DNA of 32,000 nucleotides from Clostridiales bacterium (GCA_015056545.1 SVGE01000002.1:92575-124574), one strand, 5' to 3'; positions 2,841 through 21,512 are shown, counted from the stretch's first letter. Numbers and translations are program-made. Notes: generated by a model not told the origin, from the letters alone.

Positions 2841-4415
2841 ATGAATACAAAGTATATTTTTGTAACAGGTGGAGTAGTATCAGGTTTAGGAAAAGGAATA
2901 ACAGCTGCAGCATTGGGAAGATTACTTAAAAATAGAGGATATAAAGTTGTTATACAAAAATTTGACCAATACATAAATATTGATCCTGGTAAAATGAATC
3001 CAATAGAACATGGTGAAGTTTTTGTAACAGATGATGGAACAGAAACAGATTTAGATTTGGGGCATTATGAAAGATTTATTGATGAAAATTTAACTTGCAA
3101 ATCAAGTTTAACAACTGGAAAAATATATTCTAGCGTAATTAATAAAGAACGTAGTGGAGAATATGGAGGAAAAACTGTACAAGTTATACCACATATAACT
3201 AATGAGGTTAAAGAAAATATATATTCATTTAAAAATACAGATGTAGATATAGTAATTGTAGAAATAGGAGGAACTGTTGGAGATATAGAAGGTCTTTATT
3301 TAATAGAAGCAATAAGACAAATAGGTACTGAAAATTTAAAGGAAGATGTAGCATATGTTCATGTAACATTACTTCCATATATATCAGGGTCTAATGAATT
3401 AAAATCTAAACCAACACAACATTCAGTAAAAGAATTACAATCTTTTGGTATAAAACCAGATATATTAGTATGCAGAAGTGATGTTCCTATTCCTCATGAA
3501 TTAAAAGAAAAAATATCTCTTTTCTGTAATGTTACCCCAGATAATGTTATTGAAAATAAAACTGTAAACTGTTTATATGAAGTTCCATTAATGCTTGAAA
3601 AAGAAGGTTTAGGTAATCAAATATGTAAACATTTACAAATAGAAAATAAAGTGGATAATAAAAAATGGGAAGAAATAGTTAACAAATATATATATGCAGA
3701 AAAAGAAATTAATATAGCAATAGTAGGTAAATATACACAACTTGAAGATTCATATTTGTCTGTTATTGAAAGCATTACACATGCTGGTATTAACAATGAT
3801 GTTAAAGTAAATATAGAAATAATCAATTCAAATGAATTATTAGAAGAGAATGTAAAAGAAAAATTAAGTAAATTTAGTGGAATAATTGTTCCGGGAGGTT
3901 TTGGAAAAGAAGGAACTGAAGGAAAAATTATAGCAATAAAATATGCAAGAGAAAATAATATACCTTTTTTAGGTATTGGTTTAGGAATGCAACTTTCAGT
4001 AATTGAATTTGCTAGAAATGTTTTAAATATTAAAGATGCTACTACTGAAGAATTTGATAAAACAGCAGAAAATAAAATTATACATATAATAAGTGATAAT
4101 AGTAATACAATGAGATTAGGAAGTTATCCATGTTTATTAAAAGATAATTCACTTGCACATAACATATATAATGAGAAAACAATAAATGAACGTCATAGAA
4201 ATAAATATGAATTTAATAATAGCTATTTAGAAATTCTAGAAAATAATGGAATGATAGTTTCTGGAAAATCAGTAGATGGAAGATTTGTTGAAATAGTTGA
4301 AATACAAAATAATAAATTTTTTATAGGAACACAATTTCATCCAGAATTCAAATCAAGACCTAATAGACCAGCGCCTTTATTTGATAGTTTAATTAAAGCT
4401 TGTATAATTAAATAA
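2841..4415 (+). CDS. pyrG: CTP synthase
   Basis: 524 aa. N-terminal YIFVTGGVVSGLGKGI, and a C-terminal glutamine amidotransferase domain (GICLGMQ-like GIGLGMQ, FHPEF). Confidence 0.97.
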   Translation: MNTKYIFVTGGVVSGLGKGITAAALGRLLKNRGYKVVIQKFDQYINIDPGKMNPIEHGEVFVTDDGTETDLDLGHYERFIDENLTCKSSLTTGKIYSSVINKERSGEYGGKTVQVIPHITNEVKENIYSFKNTDVDIVIVEIGGTVGDIEGLYLIEAIRQIGTENLKEDVAYVHVTLLPYISGSNELKSKPTQHSVKELQSFGIKPDILVCRSDVPIPHELKEKISLFCNVTPDNVIENKTVNCLYEVPLMLEKEGLGNQICKHLQIENKVDNKKWEEIVNKYIYAEKEINIAIVGKYTQLEDSYLSVIESITHAGINNDVKVNIEIINSNELLEENVKEKLSKFSGIIVPGGFGKEGTEGKIIAIKYARENNIPFLGIGLGMQLSVIEFARNVLNIKDATTEEFDKTAENKIIHIISDNSNTMRLGSYPCLLKDNSLAHNIYNEKTINERHRNKYEFNNSYLEILENNGMIVSGKSVDGRFVEIVEIQNNKFFIGTQFHPEFKSRPNRPAPLFDSLIKACIIK

Positions 4416-6594: not shown

Positions 6595-7716
6595 ATGAAT
6601 AAAGAATTATATGAAAAATTAGTAAAACCAAATGTTGTTGAATTAGATAACAAAATTGATCAAATTGATATGTCTAAAGCAGAAGGGAAAATAGAGGAAT
6701 ATGATTATCAAAAAGAATTATATAATATATTAACAGAAAAATTTAGTATTATTGAGGATATTGCACTTAAGCAAGTTAATAAAAATGTTAAAGAATTTGA
6801 AGAAAAAGAAAATATAAAAAATAGTGCTGAAGTTAGAGTTGTTCAATATGATAAGTTGCAAGAACAAGTAAAAAGTTCATATACAAAAATAACTAAAGCT
6901 TTAGAAAATGGTAAAAATATAAAATGTGAGTTAGATAGTTTAGACGAGACAGGAATGAATATATATAAAAATACTGTTAGTATTGAACAAATAAACAAAA
7001 ATATTGAAATACACAAAGAAGAGTATACTTCTAATTTGCCAGAGGCTCCTAGAACATTTATACAAAAAATTGGTGAATATTTTTCAAAAGAAAGAAGAGA
7101 ATATATAAAAGTATTAAAAGATTATCAAAAAATGATAAAGATACATGCTAATGAAGGAAATAAACTTGTAAAAACTCAATTTGATATTGAAAAAAGATTA
7201 TTAGATATTCATAATAATGCTTCAAATGTAGAAGAAAAAGAATTTATAGATGCAATAAAATTAGATGAAATAACAATTAGAATAATGAACAATAACAAGG
7301 AAGGTAATTCTAATGATAAATATATAGCAGATACTATAGGATTAATATTCCAAGGAATATTAAAACAAGAGATAGAAAAATGTATATTATCAGATAGTCA
7401 AATAAATGATAATGAAAAATATATAAATTATAACAATATATTTGAAAAAATAGAGTTTGCAAAAAATGATGTATCATATAATATAGAAAAAATTAATGAA
7501 TTAGATATTGAAAAAGCTAATCTAGAAATTAAAGAGAAAATAAATAATTTAATTATTAATTCTAACAAATTATTAATTGATACTAATAATATTATGGCAA
7601 GTAATATTAATCAAATACTTGAACTATTAAATGATATACCTAAAGATAAGAAAAATGATTATGAACAATTTATAGCAAAAATGTGTGGTAAATACCCACA
7701 ATTAATTCAAAAATAA
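6595..7716 (+). CDS. Hypothetical coiled-coil protein (373 aa)
   Basis: Long ORF with AAGGAG RBS. No motif recognised. Confidence 0.5.
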   Translation: MNKELYEKLVKPNVVELDNKIDQIDMSKAEGKIEEYDYQKELYNILTEKFSIIEDIALKQVNKNVKEFEEKENIKNSAEVRVVQYDKLQEQVKSSYTKITKALENGKNIKCELDSLDETGMNIYKNTVSIEQINKNIEIHKEEYTSNLPEAPRTFIQKIGEYFSKERREYIKVLKDYQKMIKIHANEGNKLVKTQFDIEKRLLDIHNNASNVEEKEFIDAIKLDEITIRIMNNNKEGNSNDKYIADTIGLIFQGILKQEIEKCILSDSQINDNEKYINYNNIFEKIEFAKNDVSYNIEKINELDIEKANLEIKEKINNLIINSNKLLIDTNNIMASNINQILELLNDIPKDKKNDYEQFIAKMCGKYPQLIQK

Positions 7717-9845: not shown

Positions 9846-9862
9846 AAGATGTTTGTACAATA

Positions 9863-9891
9863 TTGACATAATTATATAAATATATTAAAAT
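9863..9891 (+). promoter_or_regulatory. Consensus sigma-A promoter 18 nt after the aspS stop (drives the putative antitoxin sRNA)
   Basis: TTGACA (9863-9868), 17-nt spacer, TAAAAT (9886-9891). Confidence 0.55.
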
Positions 9892-9897
9892 AAAAAT

Positions 9898-9988
9898 AGA
9901 TAAAAGGAATACCGCAAAAGCGGTTAGCCATTAAAACGTTATTAATCGCTTCTAAGGCCAAGACAGAAGCGATTAATTGTTATTTATG
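9898..9988 (+). ncRNA. Putative ~90-nt antisense sRNA (type I antitoxin candidate), complementary to the 3' end of the minus-strand small-ORF mRNA
   Basis: Lies between the promoter at 9863-9891 and the terminator at 9941-9977 (plus TTGTTATTTAT). Contains a 5' hairpin ACCGC-AAAA-GCGGT at 9911-9924. Ends are predicted, not measured. Confidence 0.4.
9941..9977. terminator. Bidirectional terminator shared by aspS/sRNA (+) and the small-ORF mRNA (-)
   Basis: Perfect 13-bp stem ATTAATCGCTTCT / AGAAGCGATTAAT with an 11-nt loop. T-rich on the + side (TGTTATTTAT) and TTTT on the - side. Confidence 0.65.
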
Positions 9989-10060
9989 AAATAATTTTTT
10001 GAAAATTATAGATAATACAATTATTTCAATAGTAAATATAATATTGTCTAATATAATCAT
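9980..10060 (-). CDS. 26-aa hydrophobic peptide MIILDNIIFTIEIIVLSIIFKKLFHK (type I toxin candidate)
   Basis: Too short for the ORF track; translated by hand. Strong SD AAGGGGGTGA (complement of 10065-10074) sits 5 nt before the ATG (complement of 10058-10060). Hydrophobic core with a basic KKLFHK tail. The stop abuts the terminator. Confidence 0.5.
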   Translation of the reverse strand: MIILDNIIFTIEIIVLSIIFKKLFHK

Positions 10061-10157
10061 ATTATCACCCCCTTATGAAATATATTTGTATATTATGTAA
10101 TAACTAGGTGTAAATATGGGGGCTAACCGCTCTGCTTAATTCCTTTTACCTGAAAGT

Positions 10158-10186
10158 ATTATATAACTAAAATAATGATTTGTAAA
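10158..10186 (-). promoter_or_regulatory. Consensus sigma-A promoter on the minus strand for the small-ORF mRNA
   Basis: On the minus strand: TTTACA (complement of 10181-10186), 17-nt spacer, TATAAT (complement of 10158-10163). Predicted TSS near 10151. Confidence 0.55.
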
Positions 10187-10228
10187 TAAAAAATATGGCA
10201 AAAAAACAAACAATTCATCGTAAAATCC

Positions 10229-10253
10229 GACAAATGCAAGTTTGTCTTTTTTT
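10229..10253 (+). terminator. Weak hairpin plus T7 tract upstream of rsmB
   Basis: GACAAA / TTTGTC 6-bp stem followed by TTTTTTT. May insulate rsmB from read-through. Confidence 0.3.
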
Positions 10254-10311
10254 ATTTCTTTTCTATTGAAAATTATACTATATTTGTGATATATTTAAAC
10301 AGGTGAGATAA

Positions 10312-11646
10312 ATGGAAAAAAATAATATAAATGCAAGAGAAATTGCATTAAAAATATTATATAAAATAGATAAAGAAAATGCATATTCTAATATAGTTTT
10401 AGATAGTTTTTTAAAAGAATATAATTTGGAAAATAGGGATAAAGCTTTTATTTCTCAGCTTGTTTATGGCAGTATTACATATAAAATTACATTAGATTAT
10501 ATTATTTCAAAACATTCTAAAATAAAACTAAAAAAAATTTCAGATTGGATACTTAATATACTAAGATTAGGTGTTTACCAAATAATGTTTTTAGATAAAA
10601 TACCTAAAAGAGCAATTGTTAATGAAAGCGTTAATTTAGCTAAAAAGTATGGACATATAAAATCTTCAGGTTTTGTAAATGCTATGTTAAAAAACATATC
10701 TGAAACTGAATTAGATGAATTAAGTTTTTCTAATGAAATAGACGAACTTTCAATTAAAACATCACATGAAAAATGGTTTATTGAAAAATTAATAAAAGAA
10801 TATGGATTAGATAATGCAAGAAAGATATGTGAATATAATAATATTGAGCCACCTGTATATATTAGAATTAATGTATTGAAAACAACGATTGATGAATTTA
10901 GAAATAAATTAGATAAATTAGAAATTAAATATGAAGATGGAATAGTTCCTAATACTTTAAAAATAGAAAAATTAAATGGCTTACTTGAAAGTGAATTATT
11001 TAAAAATGGATATTTTTCTATACAAGATAATGCGGCTAGTTTAGCTTCATATATTTTGAATGTAAAAGAAGGAGAAAATGTATTAGATATGTGTAGTTCA
11101 CCTGGTGGAAAAACTGCACATATGGCAGAAATGATGAAAGATAAAGGAACAATTACAGCTTGTGATGTTTATGAGAATAGACTTAGTTTAGTTAAAAAAA
11201 CAGCTAGAAGATTAGGTATAACTTGTATTAAAACTAAATTAAATGATGGTACTAAATTAAATAATGAATTTATTGATAAATTTGATAAAGTGTTAGTTGA
11301 TGCACCATGTAGTGGGTTAGGAGTTATTAGAAGAAAAATAGATATCAAGTATCAAAAGGCAGAAGAAGATATTGATGAAATAAAAAATATTCAATATTTG
11401 ATTTTGAAAAATGCAAGCCAATATGTAAAGCTAAATGGAGAGATTGTATATAGTACGTGTACAATATTTAAAGAAGAAAATGATGATATAATAAATAAAT
11501 TTTTAAAAGAGAACTCTAATTTTAGATTATTAGATATATCAGATAAAATAAAAGATAATATAAATAAAAATGGATGTATTCAAGTGCTTCCACATATACA
11601 TAATTTAGATGGCTTTTATATAGCAAAACTTGAAAGAATATCTTAA
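10312..11646 (+). CDS. rsmB: 16S rRNA (cytosine967-C5)-methyltransferase RsmB/Sun
   Basis: 444 aa. NusB-like N-terminal domain plus a SAM methyltransferase domain with DMCSSPGGKT and VDAPCSGLGVIRR. Confidence 0.9.
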   Translation: MEKNNINAREIALKILYKIDKENAYSNIVLDSFLKEYNLENRDKAFISQLVYGSITYKITLDYIISKHSKIKLKKISDWILNILRLGVYQIMFLDKIPKRAIVNESVNLAKKYGHIKSSGFVNAMLKNISETELDELSFSNEIDELSIKTSHEKWFIEKLIKEYGLDNARKICEYNNIEPPVYIRINVLKTTIDEFRNKLDKLEIKYEDGIVPNTLKIEKLNGLLESELFKNGYFSIQDNAASLASYILNVKEGENVLDMCSSPGGKTAHMAEMMKDKGTITACDVYENRLSLVKKTARRLGITCIKTKLNDGTKLNNEFIDKFDKVLVDAPCSGLGVIRRKIDIKYQKAEEDIDEIKNIQYLILKNASQYVKLNGEIVYSTCTIFKEENDDIINKFLKENSNFRLLDISDKIKDNINKNGCIQVLPHIHNLDGFYIAKLERIS

Positions 11647-15152: not shown

Positions 15153-15695
15153 TTAAATATCAATACTATCATCATCATTTGTTAATAAATTTATGATTTG
15201 AGGATAATATTTAAGTGAATTATTTTTCCAGTTTTCAGCTATTTTTCTAGCTTGTTCCATAGTTCCAGCATAAATTTCTAAAGAAAACAATCTTGAACTA
15301 CCTTCATCAATATTACATTTTACATTTATTTTATTTGCATCAAGTATTATAAAATCTGTTGTTATAGATAATTCATATTTTAGACCTTTAATAATTTTTT
15401 GTATTGCATTATCTGCTGCAACACTCATAACACTTGGTATTAAATACATTAAATCAGTTAATGTAGATTTTCCTTTTTCAGTAATAATGTAATAATGTTT
15501 ATTATTTTCTTCAAATATATTTATAAATTCTTTATCTTTTAAATCAGAAAGAAATTGTTGAAAATAAAAATAATTAATTTCATTAATACTAAAATATATA
15601 TCTGTTAAATTACTTATAGTAACAGGAATATTTGCTTTATTTAAAATATATAATATTAATAGCCTGTTTTCAGGATTTGAGTTATCGTTTATCAT
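15153..15695 (-). CDS. DUF4364-family protein (putative PadR-like regulator common in Clostridia)
   Basis: NRLLILYILNKANIPVTISNLTDIYFSINEINYFYFQQFLSDL matches my recollection of the DUF4364 N-terminal pattern. ATG 15695 is preferred over the upstream TTG at 15713. Confidence 0.6.
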   Translation of the reverse strand: MINDNSNPENRLLILYILNKANIPVTISNLTDIYFSINEINYFYFQQFLSDLKDKEFINIFEENNKHYYIITEKGKSTLTDLMYLIPSVMSVAADNAIQKIIKGLKYELSITTDFIILDANKINVKCNIDEGSSRLFSLEIYAGTMEQARKIAENWKNNSLKYYPQIINLLTNDDDSIDI

Positions 15696-15746
15696 TATCA
15701 ATTTTATCACCAAAAAAATTATATCATACTTTTTTTCATTTTACTA

Positions 15747-15790: not shown

Positions 15791-15864
15791 AGGGGTATAG
15801 TTCATCGGTAGAATAACGGTCTCCAAAACCGCTGAGCTAGGTTCGATTCCTAGTACCCCTGCCA
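15791..15864 (+). tRNA. trnW: tRNA-Trp (anticodon CCA), CCA end encoded
   Basis: Folded by hand. Acceptor AGGGGTA/TACCCCT, anticodon loop CTCCAAA, T-arm CTAGG-TTCGATT-CCTAG, discriminator G, 3' CCA. Length 74 nt. Confidence 0.93.
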
Positions 15865-20423: not shown

Positions 20424-21344
20424 TTGAATAAAAAACATAAACCAAATAAAAGAGCAGATATAACATATGACTATATGTTTAAATATGTATTTGGTAATGA
20501 AAATAATAAAAAGTATACAGCAAAATTAATTGAATTAATTACAGGAATAAAAGTTTATAAAATTGAAATTGCTACTAATGTAGAGTTGGAGAAATTAAGA
20601 AAAAAAGAGAAAGTAAGTATATTAGATGTAAAAGCAAAAATAAATGATGGAATAGTTGTTAATATTGAGATGCAAAATAATAATGAATTAGATATGGCAG
20701 AGAGAACTGAAAGATATGGTAATAAAATATATTGTAATGAAATAAATAAAGGAAAGAAGTATAAAGATATTAAACAAGTTATATTAATAAATATATTAAA
20801 CTATAAATTAAATGAACATAAAGAGATTTTATCTAAAACAGTGTCTGTAATAGATAAACATAGAGAAACAGAAATTAAAACAAATATAAAGTATTATTTT
20901 TTAGAATTACCAAAAGCTAAAGGGAAAAATCTAGATTTAAATGATGAATTAACTGAGTGGGCAATTTATATGAGAGGAAAAGATATGGAGGTGATAGAAA
21001 TGATAAAAAAGAAGAATAAGGATATTAGGAGAATTGATAAAAAGATAAGAGAAGAAAAAAGGCGAGAAGAAAGACTAAGAATGGAAGAATTAAGATTTAA
21101 ATGGCAATATGATTGGGAATATACGAAAGCAAAAGCGGAAGAAAAAGGGGAAAAAAGAGGAAGAATAATTGGTAAAGAGGAAGGAATAAAAGAAGGAATA
21201 AAAGAAGGAATAAAAGAAGGAATAAAAGAAGGAATAAAAGATATTGCAATCAATATGATAAAAAATGGTTTTAAAATGGATGATATAATAATTGCCACAG
21301 GACTTGGAAATAGCGAATTAGAAGAATTGTATAATGGTATTTAA
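20424..21344 (+). CDS. Rpn-family (YhgA-like) PD-(D/E)XK recombination-promoting nuclease / putative transposase
   Basis: TTG start behind AAGGAGG. N-terminal YDYMFKYVFGNE and core ILDVKAKINDGIVVNIEMQ (D...ExQ) are hallmarks of the family. C-terminal helix IAINMIKNGFKMDDIIIATGL. Confidence 0.85.
   Translation: MNKKHKPNKRADITYDYMFKYVFGNENNKKYTAKLIELITGIKVYKIEIATNVELEKLRKKEKVSILDVKAKINDGIVVNIEMQNNNELDMAERTERYGNKIYCNEINKGKKYKDIKQVILINILNYKLNEHKEILSKTVSVIDKHRETEIKTNIKYYFLELPKAKGKNLDLNDELTEWAIYMRGKDMEVIEMIKKKNKDIRRIDKKIREEKRREERLRMEELRFKWQYDWEYTKAKAEEKGEKRGRIIGKEEGIKEGIKEGIKEGIKEGIKDIAINMIKNGFKMDDIIIATGLGNSELEELYNGI
21180..21239 (+). repeat. Perfect 12-bp tandem repeat (GAAGGAATAAAA) x5 encoding (EGIK)5 inside the Rpn gene
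   Basis: Read directly from the sequence. Confidence 0.95.
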
Positions 21345-21365: not shown

Positions 21366-21512
21366 ATGAGAAAAAGGAAAGAATATAATTTGAAATCTAA
21401 AATTAATAAATCTATAACAAAGTTTAAGAAAAAAATTGAAAGCAGAAAGAGAAAAGAATATGAAAAAGAAATTAATTTAAAACAAATAAGAGATATGTTT
21501 GATTATGAATAA
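21366..21512 (+). CDS. Small, highly basic protein (48 aa, MRKRKEYNLKSKINKSITKFKKKIESRKRKEYEKEINLKQIRDMFDYE)
   Basis: Not in the ORF track. AAGGAGG (21354-21360) lies 5 nt before the ATG. Confidence 0.4.
   Translation: MRKRKEYNLKSKINKSITKFKKKIESRKRKEYEKEINLKQIRDMFDYE

Follow-up and report, generated by a model that had tools for sequence, protein, structure and literature searches.

The question raised by this locus is why two housekeeping genes, aspS and rsmB, should be parted by a spacer of 466 nucleotides (nt) with signals on both strands. The locus lies in a 32,000-nt stretch of DNA from a Clostridiales bacterium (GCA_015056545.1 SVGE01000002.1:92575-124574), hereafter the window, which has a G+C content of about 25% and carries nearly every gene on the plus strand. 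The spacer (9846-10311) runs from the aspS stop (9845) to the rsmB start (10312), and the neighbours are housekeeping genes: greA, the genes for CTP synthase and a cell-wall amidase, aspS, rsmB, cmk, plsC and the gene for an S1-domain protein. A preliminary description of the window had given the spacer 465 nt and placed in it an unannotated type I toxin-antitoxin-like module; the length was one nucleotide short, and the long, module-bearing spacer itself is borne out. The reading that we favour, with a little better than even confidence, is that of an orphan type I toxin-antitoxin-like module with 3′ overlap, inserted into an aspS-rsmB pair that was once contiguous.

The candidate module is framed by two promoter-like sites that face each other. 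On the plus strand, TTGACA-17-TAAAAT (9863-9891) is located 18 nt past the aspS stop and predicts a transcript starting at A9898 or G9899. On the minus strand, TTTACA-17-TATAAT (10158-10186) predicts a messenger RNA (mRNA) starting at A10151, with a 5′ untranslated region (UTR) of 91 nt. A loose promoter scan of the AT-rich spacer stays at background (13 found, 10.8 expected). When at most one mismatch and a 17-nt spacing are demanded, the whole 32 kb yields 7 matches on both strands against 1.49 expected, a number reached in no shuffle. Two of the seven are the facing sites of the aspS-rsmB spacer, each with 11 of 12 positions, and of the remaining five, four directly precede genes; the site at 10186-10158 is the sole near-consensus match on the minus strand of the window. 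Both promoters of the preliminary description were thus found where it had placed them, and both are rare.

Contigs of relatives were recovered from a large protein collection and named L086, L087, L090 and L098-L101. The orthologues of the module amount to one complete and one partial copy: L086 (RsmB 82% identical) has a spacer of 457 nt with a complete module, and in L090 (RsmB 85% identical) the contig stops inside the element described below as box R, leaving only the right-hand 190 nt visible. As a neutral benchmark we used the fourfold-degenerate sites of rsmB, which are 0.66 identical between the window and L086. Against this benchmark the plus promoter segment stands at 0.86, with 6 of 6 positions kept between the -10 and +1, and L086 retains it as TTGACA-16-TAAAAT. 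The minus promoter segment (10152-10186) is 0.89 identical in L086, and its -10 TATAAT is present in both L086 and L090. Another plus-strand candidate, at 10145-10173 with an RNA ending at 10256, was rejected as it is lost in both L086 and L090, and therefore no conserved plus promoter faces the leader of the peptide mRNA. Rarity and conservation together make it likely that the spacer holds two convergent transcription units.

The minus-strand unit contains an open reading frame (ORF) of 26 codons and a stop (9980-10060, minus strand) that encodes MIILDNIIFTIEIIVLSIIFKKLFHK, a candidate toxin or small membrane peptide. Its ATG lies 3 nt behind the Shine-Dalgarno (SD) sequence AAGGGGGTGAT (10064-10074, minus strand), which agrees with AAGGAGGTGAT at 10 of 11 positions. 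We scored the 17 nt upstream of every ATG, GTG and TTG in the window for pairing with the anti-SD, and this site (-16.8 kcal/mol) ranked 2 out of 2830 start codons. It is also the sole minus-strand entry among the top 65, most of which are real gene starts. The strong SD announced by the preliminary description is hence there, and in exceptional company.

Comparison with L086 shows that the frame is constrained. The orthologous peptide, MTQLSYINFIIKLIVLTLIIKVTISTKN, starts at the aligned ATG behind the SD AAGGAGGTGG in the same place. The 26 aligned codons differ at 35 of their 78 nt but specify 10 identical residues, of which 5 are kept by synonymous changes. In the ORF frame the BLOSUM62 score reaches 35, compared with -26, -7, +7, +3 and -20 in the other five frames. 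Shuffling of residues reached this score with p = 0.002, and in a neutral simulation with 35 random substitutions the frame remained open in 17% of trials and the score was attained in 1.1%. We take the ORF to be probably a real, fast-evolving coding sequence. Its nucleotide identity is 0.56, and that of the middle of the leader 0.29, values that point to an unusually fast turnover of peptide and leader. It was also observed that the module interior as a whole (9980-10119, compared with 879-1010 of L086) is more diverged than the fourfold-degenerate sites of the flanking gene, the edge elements being 0.86-0.94 identical. A plus-strand ORF at 10195-10269 (MAKKQT...) was rejected as coding; it lacks an SD and is frameshifted in L086.

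The plus-strand unit would produce a non-coding RNA of about 90 nt (9898-9988, plus strand; both ends predicted), the candidate antitoxin, made up of a 5′ box with a small hairpin, a linker, a 13-bp terminator and a U-rich tail. It folds at -26.6 kcal/mol (z -4.8), as well as which none of 200 shuffles folded, and its consensus structure with L086 comprises 20 pairs, with two compensatory double changes and none broken. The linker is only 0.30 identical to L086. Its 5′ end, box L (9898-9930, plus strand; AGATAAAAGGAATACCGCAAAAGCGGTTAGCC), is by comparison the most conserved block of the spacer, with 31 of 33 positions identical (0.94). From the anatomy, this RNA would be antisense to the last part of the peptide mRNA, covering its stop codon and 3′ UTR, in agreement with the convergent arrangement that had been likened to txpA/RatA and bsrG/SR4. 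The aspS transcript traverses the same sequence before terminating, so that the 3′ UTRs of aspS mRNAs would be antisense to the peptide mRNA as well.

The preliminary description had both transcripts ending at one shared bidirectional terminator of 13 bp. The hairpin is present (9941-9977, either strand; arms 9941-9953 and 9965-9977, loop of 11 nt), its arms fully complementary in the window and 0.85 identical to L086, and all four stem differences in L086 make up two compensatory pairs (U-A to C-G and C-G to U-A). On the plus side its tail is U-rich (TGTTATTT in the window, TTTTTT in L086), whereas on the minus side the tail (AACGTTTT in the window, ATTAACTT in L086) has no good U-tract. The hairpin is consequently a convincing terminator for aspS and the plus RNA only, and for the minus strand it appears to be a weak terminator or a pause site. 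A second terminator-like site (9897-9924, minus strand), formed by the complement of box L, consists of a hairpin at 9924-9911 (ACCGCTTTTGCGGT) followed by ATTCCTTTTATCT / ATTCCTTTTA. The terminator scan detected it both in the window and at the corresponding position of L086, with 0.0-0.1 expected in shuffles, and the peptide mRNA more probably ends there than at the 13-bp hairpin.

A feature that the preliminary description had overlooked is an inverted repeat of about 32 nt that joins the two units. The predicted 5′ end of the peptide mRNA, box R (10120-10151, minus strand; AGGTAAAAGGAATTAAGCAGAGCGGTTAGCC), reads AGGTAAAAGGAATTAAGC-AGAGCGGTTAGCC from 10151 to 10120 on the minus strand and is an inverted copy of box L (9898-9930), for which 0.00 chance matches are expected. 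The identity of the boxes begins exactly at both predicted +1 positions, whereas the two units are dissimilar in the 6 nt that separate the -10 from +1. Because the boxes are inverted copies from +1 onwards, the convergent RNAs would begin with the same, and not with complementary, sequence. Pairing of the 5′ part of the plus RNA with the leader or translation start was not significant: the best duplex (-14.9 kcal/mol) is matched by 12.5% of shuffles.

Directly 3′ of box R, the leader carries an anti-SD element, GCCCCC (10118-10123, minus strand). In partition-function calculations on the minus mRNA up to the first hairpin, this element pairs with GGGGGU of the SD at a probability of 0.83-0.99. 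In L086 a CCACC pairs with its own GGUGG at 0.74-0.80. Each anti-SD element is perfect only with its own SD, which suggests that the two have co-evolved. When the mRNA is read to about 9893 (its putative 3′ end), its 5′ box pairs with its 3′ end, giving a predicted structure of -77.1 kcal/mol (z -8.6) in which nt 1-13 are unpaired with a probability of 0.01, that is, the 5′ end is 99% paired.

These elements can be assembled into a mechanism in which the existence and ends of both transcripts, the pairing of RNAs in the cell, the toxicity of the peptide and its neutralisation are inferred. Transcription from 10186-10158 would yield an mRNA starting near 10151, whose 91-nt leader would mask a very strong ribosome-binding site with a C-rich anti-SD, and which would encode a 26-residue hydrophobic peptide with a basic tail. 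This mRNA would most likely pass the weak side of the 13-bp hairpin and end at the second hairpin and its U-tract (9924-9897), whereupon its 3′ end could pair with its own 5′ box to give a closed, stable and poorly translated form. The convergent promoter at 9863-9891 would produce the RNA of about 90 nt (9898 to about 9988), perfectly complementary to the last 90 nt or so of the mRNA, stop codon and final codons included. The duplex would be expected to lead to degradation, of the RNase (ribonuclease) III type as for RatA/txpA and SR4/bsrG. As both RNAs begin with the same box, the plus RNA could in addition displace the mRNA 5′ end from the closure. We advance as a speculation, and a rather unlikely one, that the antitoxin RNA acts as a mimic of the mRNA 5′ end, displacing this end from the panhandle, which would leave it open to 5′ decay and provide RNase III with a substrate. 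It is just as doubtful whether the panhandle would, in such a scheme, be the form in which the mRNA is both stable and silent, its 3′ strand being the complement of the antitoxin 5′ end. A regulatory logic of this kind is, to our knowledge, undescribed for type I systems.

Which relatives share this module? The RsmB protein (10312-11646) is found identical on 16-23 metagenome contigs, and a scan of the genome contigs of GTDB species representatives for RsmB gave a best relative of at most 47% identity, useless for spacer comparison. Among the recovered contigs, L087 (RsmB 66%, AspS 81%) has an aspS-rsmB spacer of 90 nt (2911-3000) with a simple terminator and no module, and in L101 (AspS 79%) the gap is 62 nt (4298-4359), again without the module. 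In L098 (2501-2508) and L099/L100 (938-957 in L099), whose RsmB is 59-60% identical, aspS and rsmB overlap by 8-20 nt. A search with the AspS C-terminus for further module-bearing contigs returned fragments at 64-72% identity and no new locus. Since relatives with RsmB at 66% identity or less have aspS and rsmB adjacent or overlapping, the module is, judging from these contigs, a lineage-specific insertion of about 400 bp into a once contiguous pair, confined to three close relatives. The distances of 62-90 nt, or overlaps, in distant relatives also imply that the ancestral state was an aspS-rsmB operon, split in the lineage of the window. The absence of the module from relatives fits a selfish insertion.

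As the insertion parts rsmB from aspS, rsmB needs a promoter of its own, and a conserved one is found at 10266-10295 (plus strand; TTGAAA-18-TATATT with a TG extension), within a segment (10257-10300) that is 0.91 identical to L086. Between this promoter and the minus promoter lies a region composed of an A-tract, a stem and a T-tract (10199-10256, either strand), present in the window, L086 and L090 and 0.78 identical to L086. Alternative stems can be drawn in it, of 12 bp in L090 and L086 and of 6 bp in the window. It is possibly an insulator or bidirectional terminator at the right edge of the insertion, acting on plus-strand read-through.

The fold-back inhibition element of hok is a known example of a sequence that closes the two ends of an mRNA. 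The likeness of the module to hok/sok and aapA1/IsoA1 lies in this aspect, the full-length mRNA being predicted to be closed by 5′-3′ pairing and poorly translatable (for aapA1, PMC5416894); their antisense RNA overlaps the 5′ region and translation start, whereas that of the window would overlap the 3′ end, and there is no sequence relation to them. Antitoxins with 3′ overlap are known; their antisense RNA brings about decay that depends on RNase III, and it can also strengthen the masking of a distant SD (PMC3834814). In function, the nearest analogy is with this class, represented by txpA/RatA and bsrG/SR4 of Bacillus subtilis. As in these systems, the genes are convergent, the antisense RNA would pair with the toxin mRNA at its 3′ end, well away from the SD, the peptide is small and hydrophobic, the SD is predicted to be partly masked in the mRNA and decay triggered by the duplex would be expected (PMC3834814). 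Unlike them, the module shows no sequence similarity, its peptide has 26 residues instead of 38-59, it sits among core genes and not in a prophage, and its plus RNA would be only about 90 nt long and start with a copy of the mRNA 5′ end.

The further likeness to par(fst) put forward in the preliminary description did not hold. The par locus (fst/RNA II; Fst/Ldr family) of Enterococcus faecalis plasmid pAD1 does resemble the module in its convergent promoters, a hairpin common to both RNAs, a very small antitoxin RNA and pairing within the mRNA that hides its 5′ end and SD (PMC7472228). The direct repeats of par, DRa and DRb, pair the antitoxin 5′ end with the translation start, whereas the repeats of the window are inverted, the RNAs share their 5′ sequence, no pairing of the plus RNA with the translation start is predicted and the hairpin has a one-sided U-tract. 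The PXXXG(C) motif of Fst/Ldr is absent, as neither the window peptide nor that of L086 has a P or a G, and no Pfam model matches. Also comparable are CD2517.1/RCd8 of Clostridioides difficile and its relatives: they come from the same class, Clostridia, their convergent genes are complementary over a long region, and they have a hydrophobic N-terminal part, a basic C-terminus and no likeness to other toxin families (PMC6563280). These toxins, which we compared by description, have 34-59 residues and are found beside CRISPR (clustered regularly interspaced short palindromic repeat) arrays or in prophages (PMC6563280), as opposed to 26 residues among housekeeping genes in the window; the window peptide has no PHROGs match.

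Searches with the peptide gave no match in Pfam or NCBIfam, even at E = 10, none in PHROGs or PADLOC, no match to PDB sequences (0), none on plasmids by tblastn, and none among 1.84 billion representative proteins with its 30-residue extension (0 matches). In viral contigs, 356 pattern matches yielded 0 confirmed peptide alignments. At gathering score, Rfam recognised only a transfer RNA (tRNA) elsewhere in the window, and its matches to the spacer at permissive thresholds all had E > 1, far below the family cut-offs. The module had no blastn match in plasmids and phages. The exact 18-mer of box L had 0 matches in viral contigs; the box pattern had 4 there, rejected as chance in GC-rich coding DNA, and 7 in metagenome contigs of 40-63% GC, also due to chance (the organism of the window lies outside that collection). 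A resemblance of the peptide to Escherichia coli TisB (IIKLIVLTL against ILKLIVAAL; E = 0.065 in a single comparison) was rejected as compositional. The module is not Fst/Ldr, TxpA/BsrG or any other profiled family, and the initial impression that the peptide belongs to no named family is upheld.

How far, then, do these data argue for a toxin-antitoxin module and not for something else? It could be that the peptide is no toxin, an explanation that we find unlikely yet worth serious consideration: the ORF would be a genuine gene for a small membrane protein, benign or regulatory, the plus element either a small RNA in its own right or no more than the 3′ UTR and terminator of aspS, and the overlap a side effect of how the convergent genes are packed. 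Small hydrophobic proteins that are not toxins are numerous, the signs of translation (SD and frame constraint) are silent on toxicity, and the hairpin is primarily a plus-strand terminator that aspS requires. However, aspS termination calls neither for a conserved near-consensus promoter just past its stop codon nor for a box L conserved at 94%, and a strong SD whose mask co-varies with it, a peptide that evolves fast and insertion into a core operon within one lineage are all typical of type I modules. The insertion relative to related genomes and the inverted repeat that bounds it could also be what is left of a small mobile element of the non-autonomous kind, the repeats of about 32 nt being its terminal inverted repeats and the promoters and ORF incidental or decaying. 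This we hold to be highly improbable, as no further copy was found in the window, in about 660 kb of fetched loci, in the phage and plasmid sets or in viral or metagenome contigs, no target-site duplication was identified, the inner ORF is under frame-specific constraint, and the conserved promoters lie outside the repeats, whose identity starts at the predicted +1, as befits a feature of the RNA.

A purely plus-strand function has, in our opinion, very little probability. It would make of the spacer a regulatory or insulator element for aspS and rsmB, in which boxes L and R form a stem in read-through RNA for processing or attenuation and the minus strand has no functional product. The inverted repeat would indeed also pair in such a transcript, and the spacer does deal with plus-strand transcription, as is evident from the conserved hairpin region at 10199-10256 and from the promoter that serves rsmB separately, but the plus-strand terminator at 9941-9977, strong in L086 with its TTTTTT tail, stands between the two boxes. 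It also leaves unexplained the SD, second among all those of the window, the conserved ATG, the frame-specific constraint on the ORF and the conserved minus -10, around which the overlapping plus-strand promoter-like site is not conserved.

Several observations weigh against the toxin-antitoxin reading that we favour. General definitions of type I toxins ask for fewer than 60 residues, a transmembrane segment and a charged C-terminus (PMC6563280), and the peptide, which ends in KKLFHK and has a potential transmembrane segment, agrees with these generic descriptors, which is weak evidence. The putative hydrophobic helix and the basic tail pointed out in the preliminary description are present; the best 19-residue hydropathy is 2.42, compared with a mean best of 1.35 for chance minus-strand ORFs, which are already hydrophobic because the minus strand is T-rich, and 6% of these chance ORFs are as hydrophobic, placing the peptide only modestly above chance. 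Neither its 26-codon length nor its hydrophobicity is unusual alone, and both are weak evidence. Two charged residues, D5 and E12 (K12 in L086), sit within the putative helix. The differences between the two ORFs are distributed 13/9/13 over the codon positions, with no third-position excess, and BLASTP with composition adjustment returned no alignment between the two peptides. The leader alone is no better folded than shuffles (z +0.43). Box R is only 0.68 identical in L086, and the 5′-3′ closure is likewise weaker there (-53.1 kcal/mol, compared with -36.4 kcal/mol without closure, the 5′ end being 41% unpaired). Moreover, the comparative tests rest on two sequences because of the one complete and one partial orthologue, and no second copy of the boxes was seen in the window or the fetched loci, nor a second copy or homologue of the module in the searched sets.

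If the toxin-antitoxin reading is true, the locus would represent an orphan family of type I toxins, found in an uncultured and deeply branching lineage of Clostridiales with 25% GC, in which we know of no type I systems. It would also supply a dated case in which a module has broken up a conserved aspS-rsmB operon, leaving rsmB with a promoter of its own. The inverted 5′ boxes would provide a compact natural test case that sets closure of an mRNA by its 5′ and 3′ ends against a 3′-overlapping antisense RNA. More generally, ORFs of fewer than 30 codons, which are skipped by gene callers, would be recoverable from SD strength and frame-specific conservation. Current understanding of type I systems would stay unchanged.

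Other features of the window were noted in the course of the analysis. The strongest SD of the window, GGAGGUGAU (-17.0 kcal/mol), precedes an in-frame internal ATG at 21000, located 192 codons into a 306-codon ORF (20424-21344) that itself has a good SD at 20424; this could reflect two genes merged into one ORF, a start codon wrongly assigned or initiation from within the gene. A plus-strand ORF of 48 codons (21366-21512) has the strong SD AAGGAGGT (-12.5 kcal/mol) and matches no Pfam model; it may encode a further small protein missed by the annotation. The sole sizeable minus-strand gene (15153-15713) encodes a DUF4364 / winged-helix protein and is adjoined by a plus-strand tRNA (15791-15861) with anticodon loop CCA (Trp), the GC skew falling to about 0 in that kilobase. 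Two further ORFs, 6595-7716 (373 residues) and 1083-1994 (303 residues), have no Pfam match. The former, rich in K, E and N, lies directly upstream of aspS, a position that is conserved in L087.

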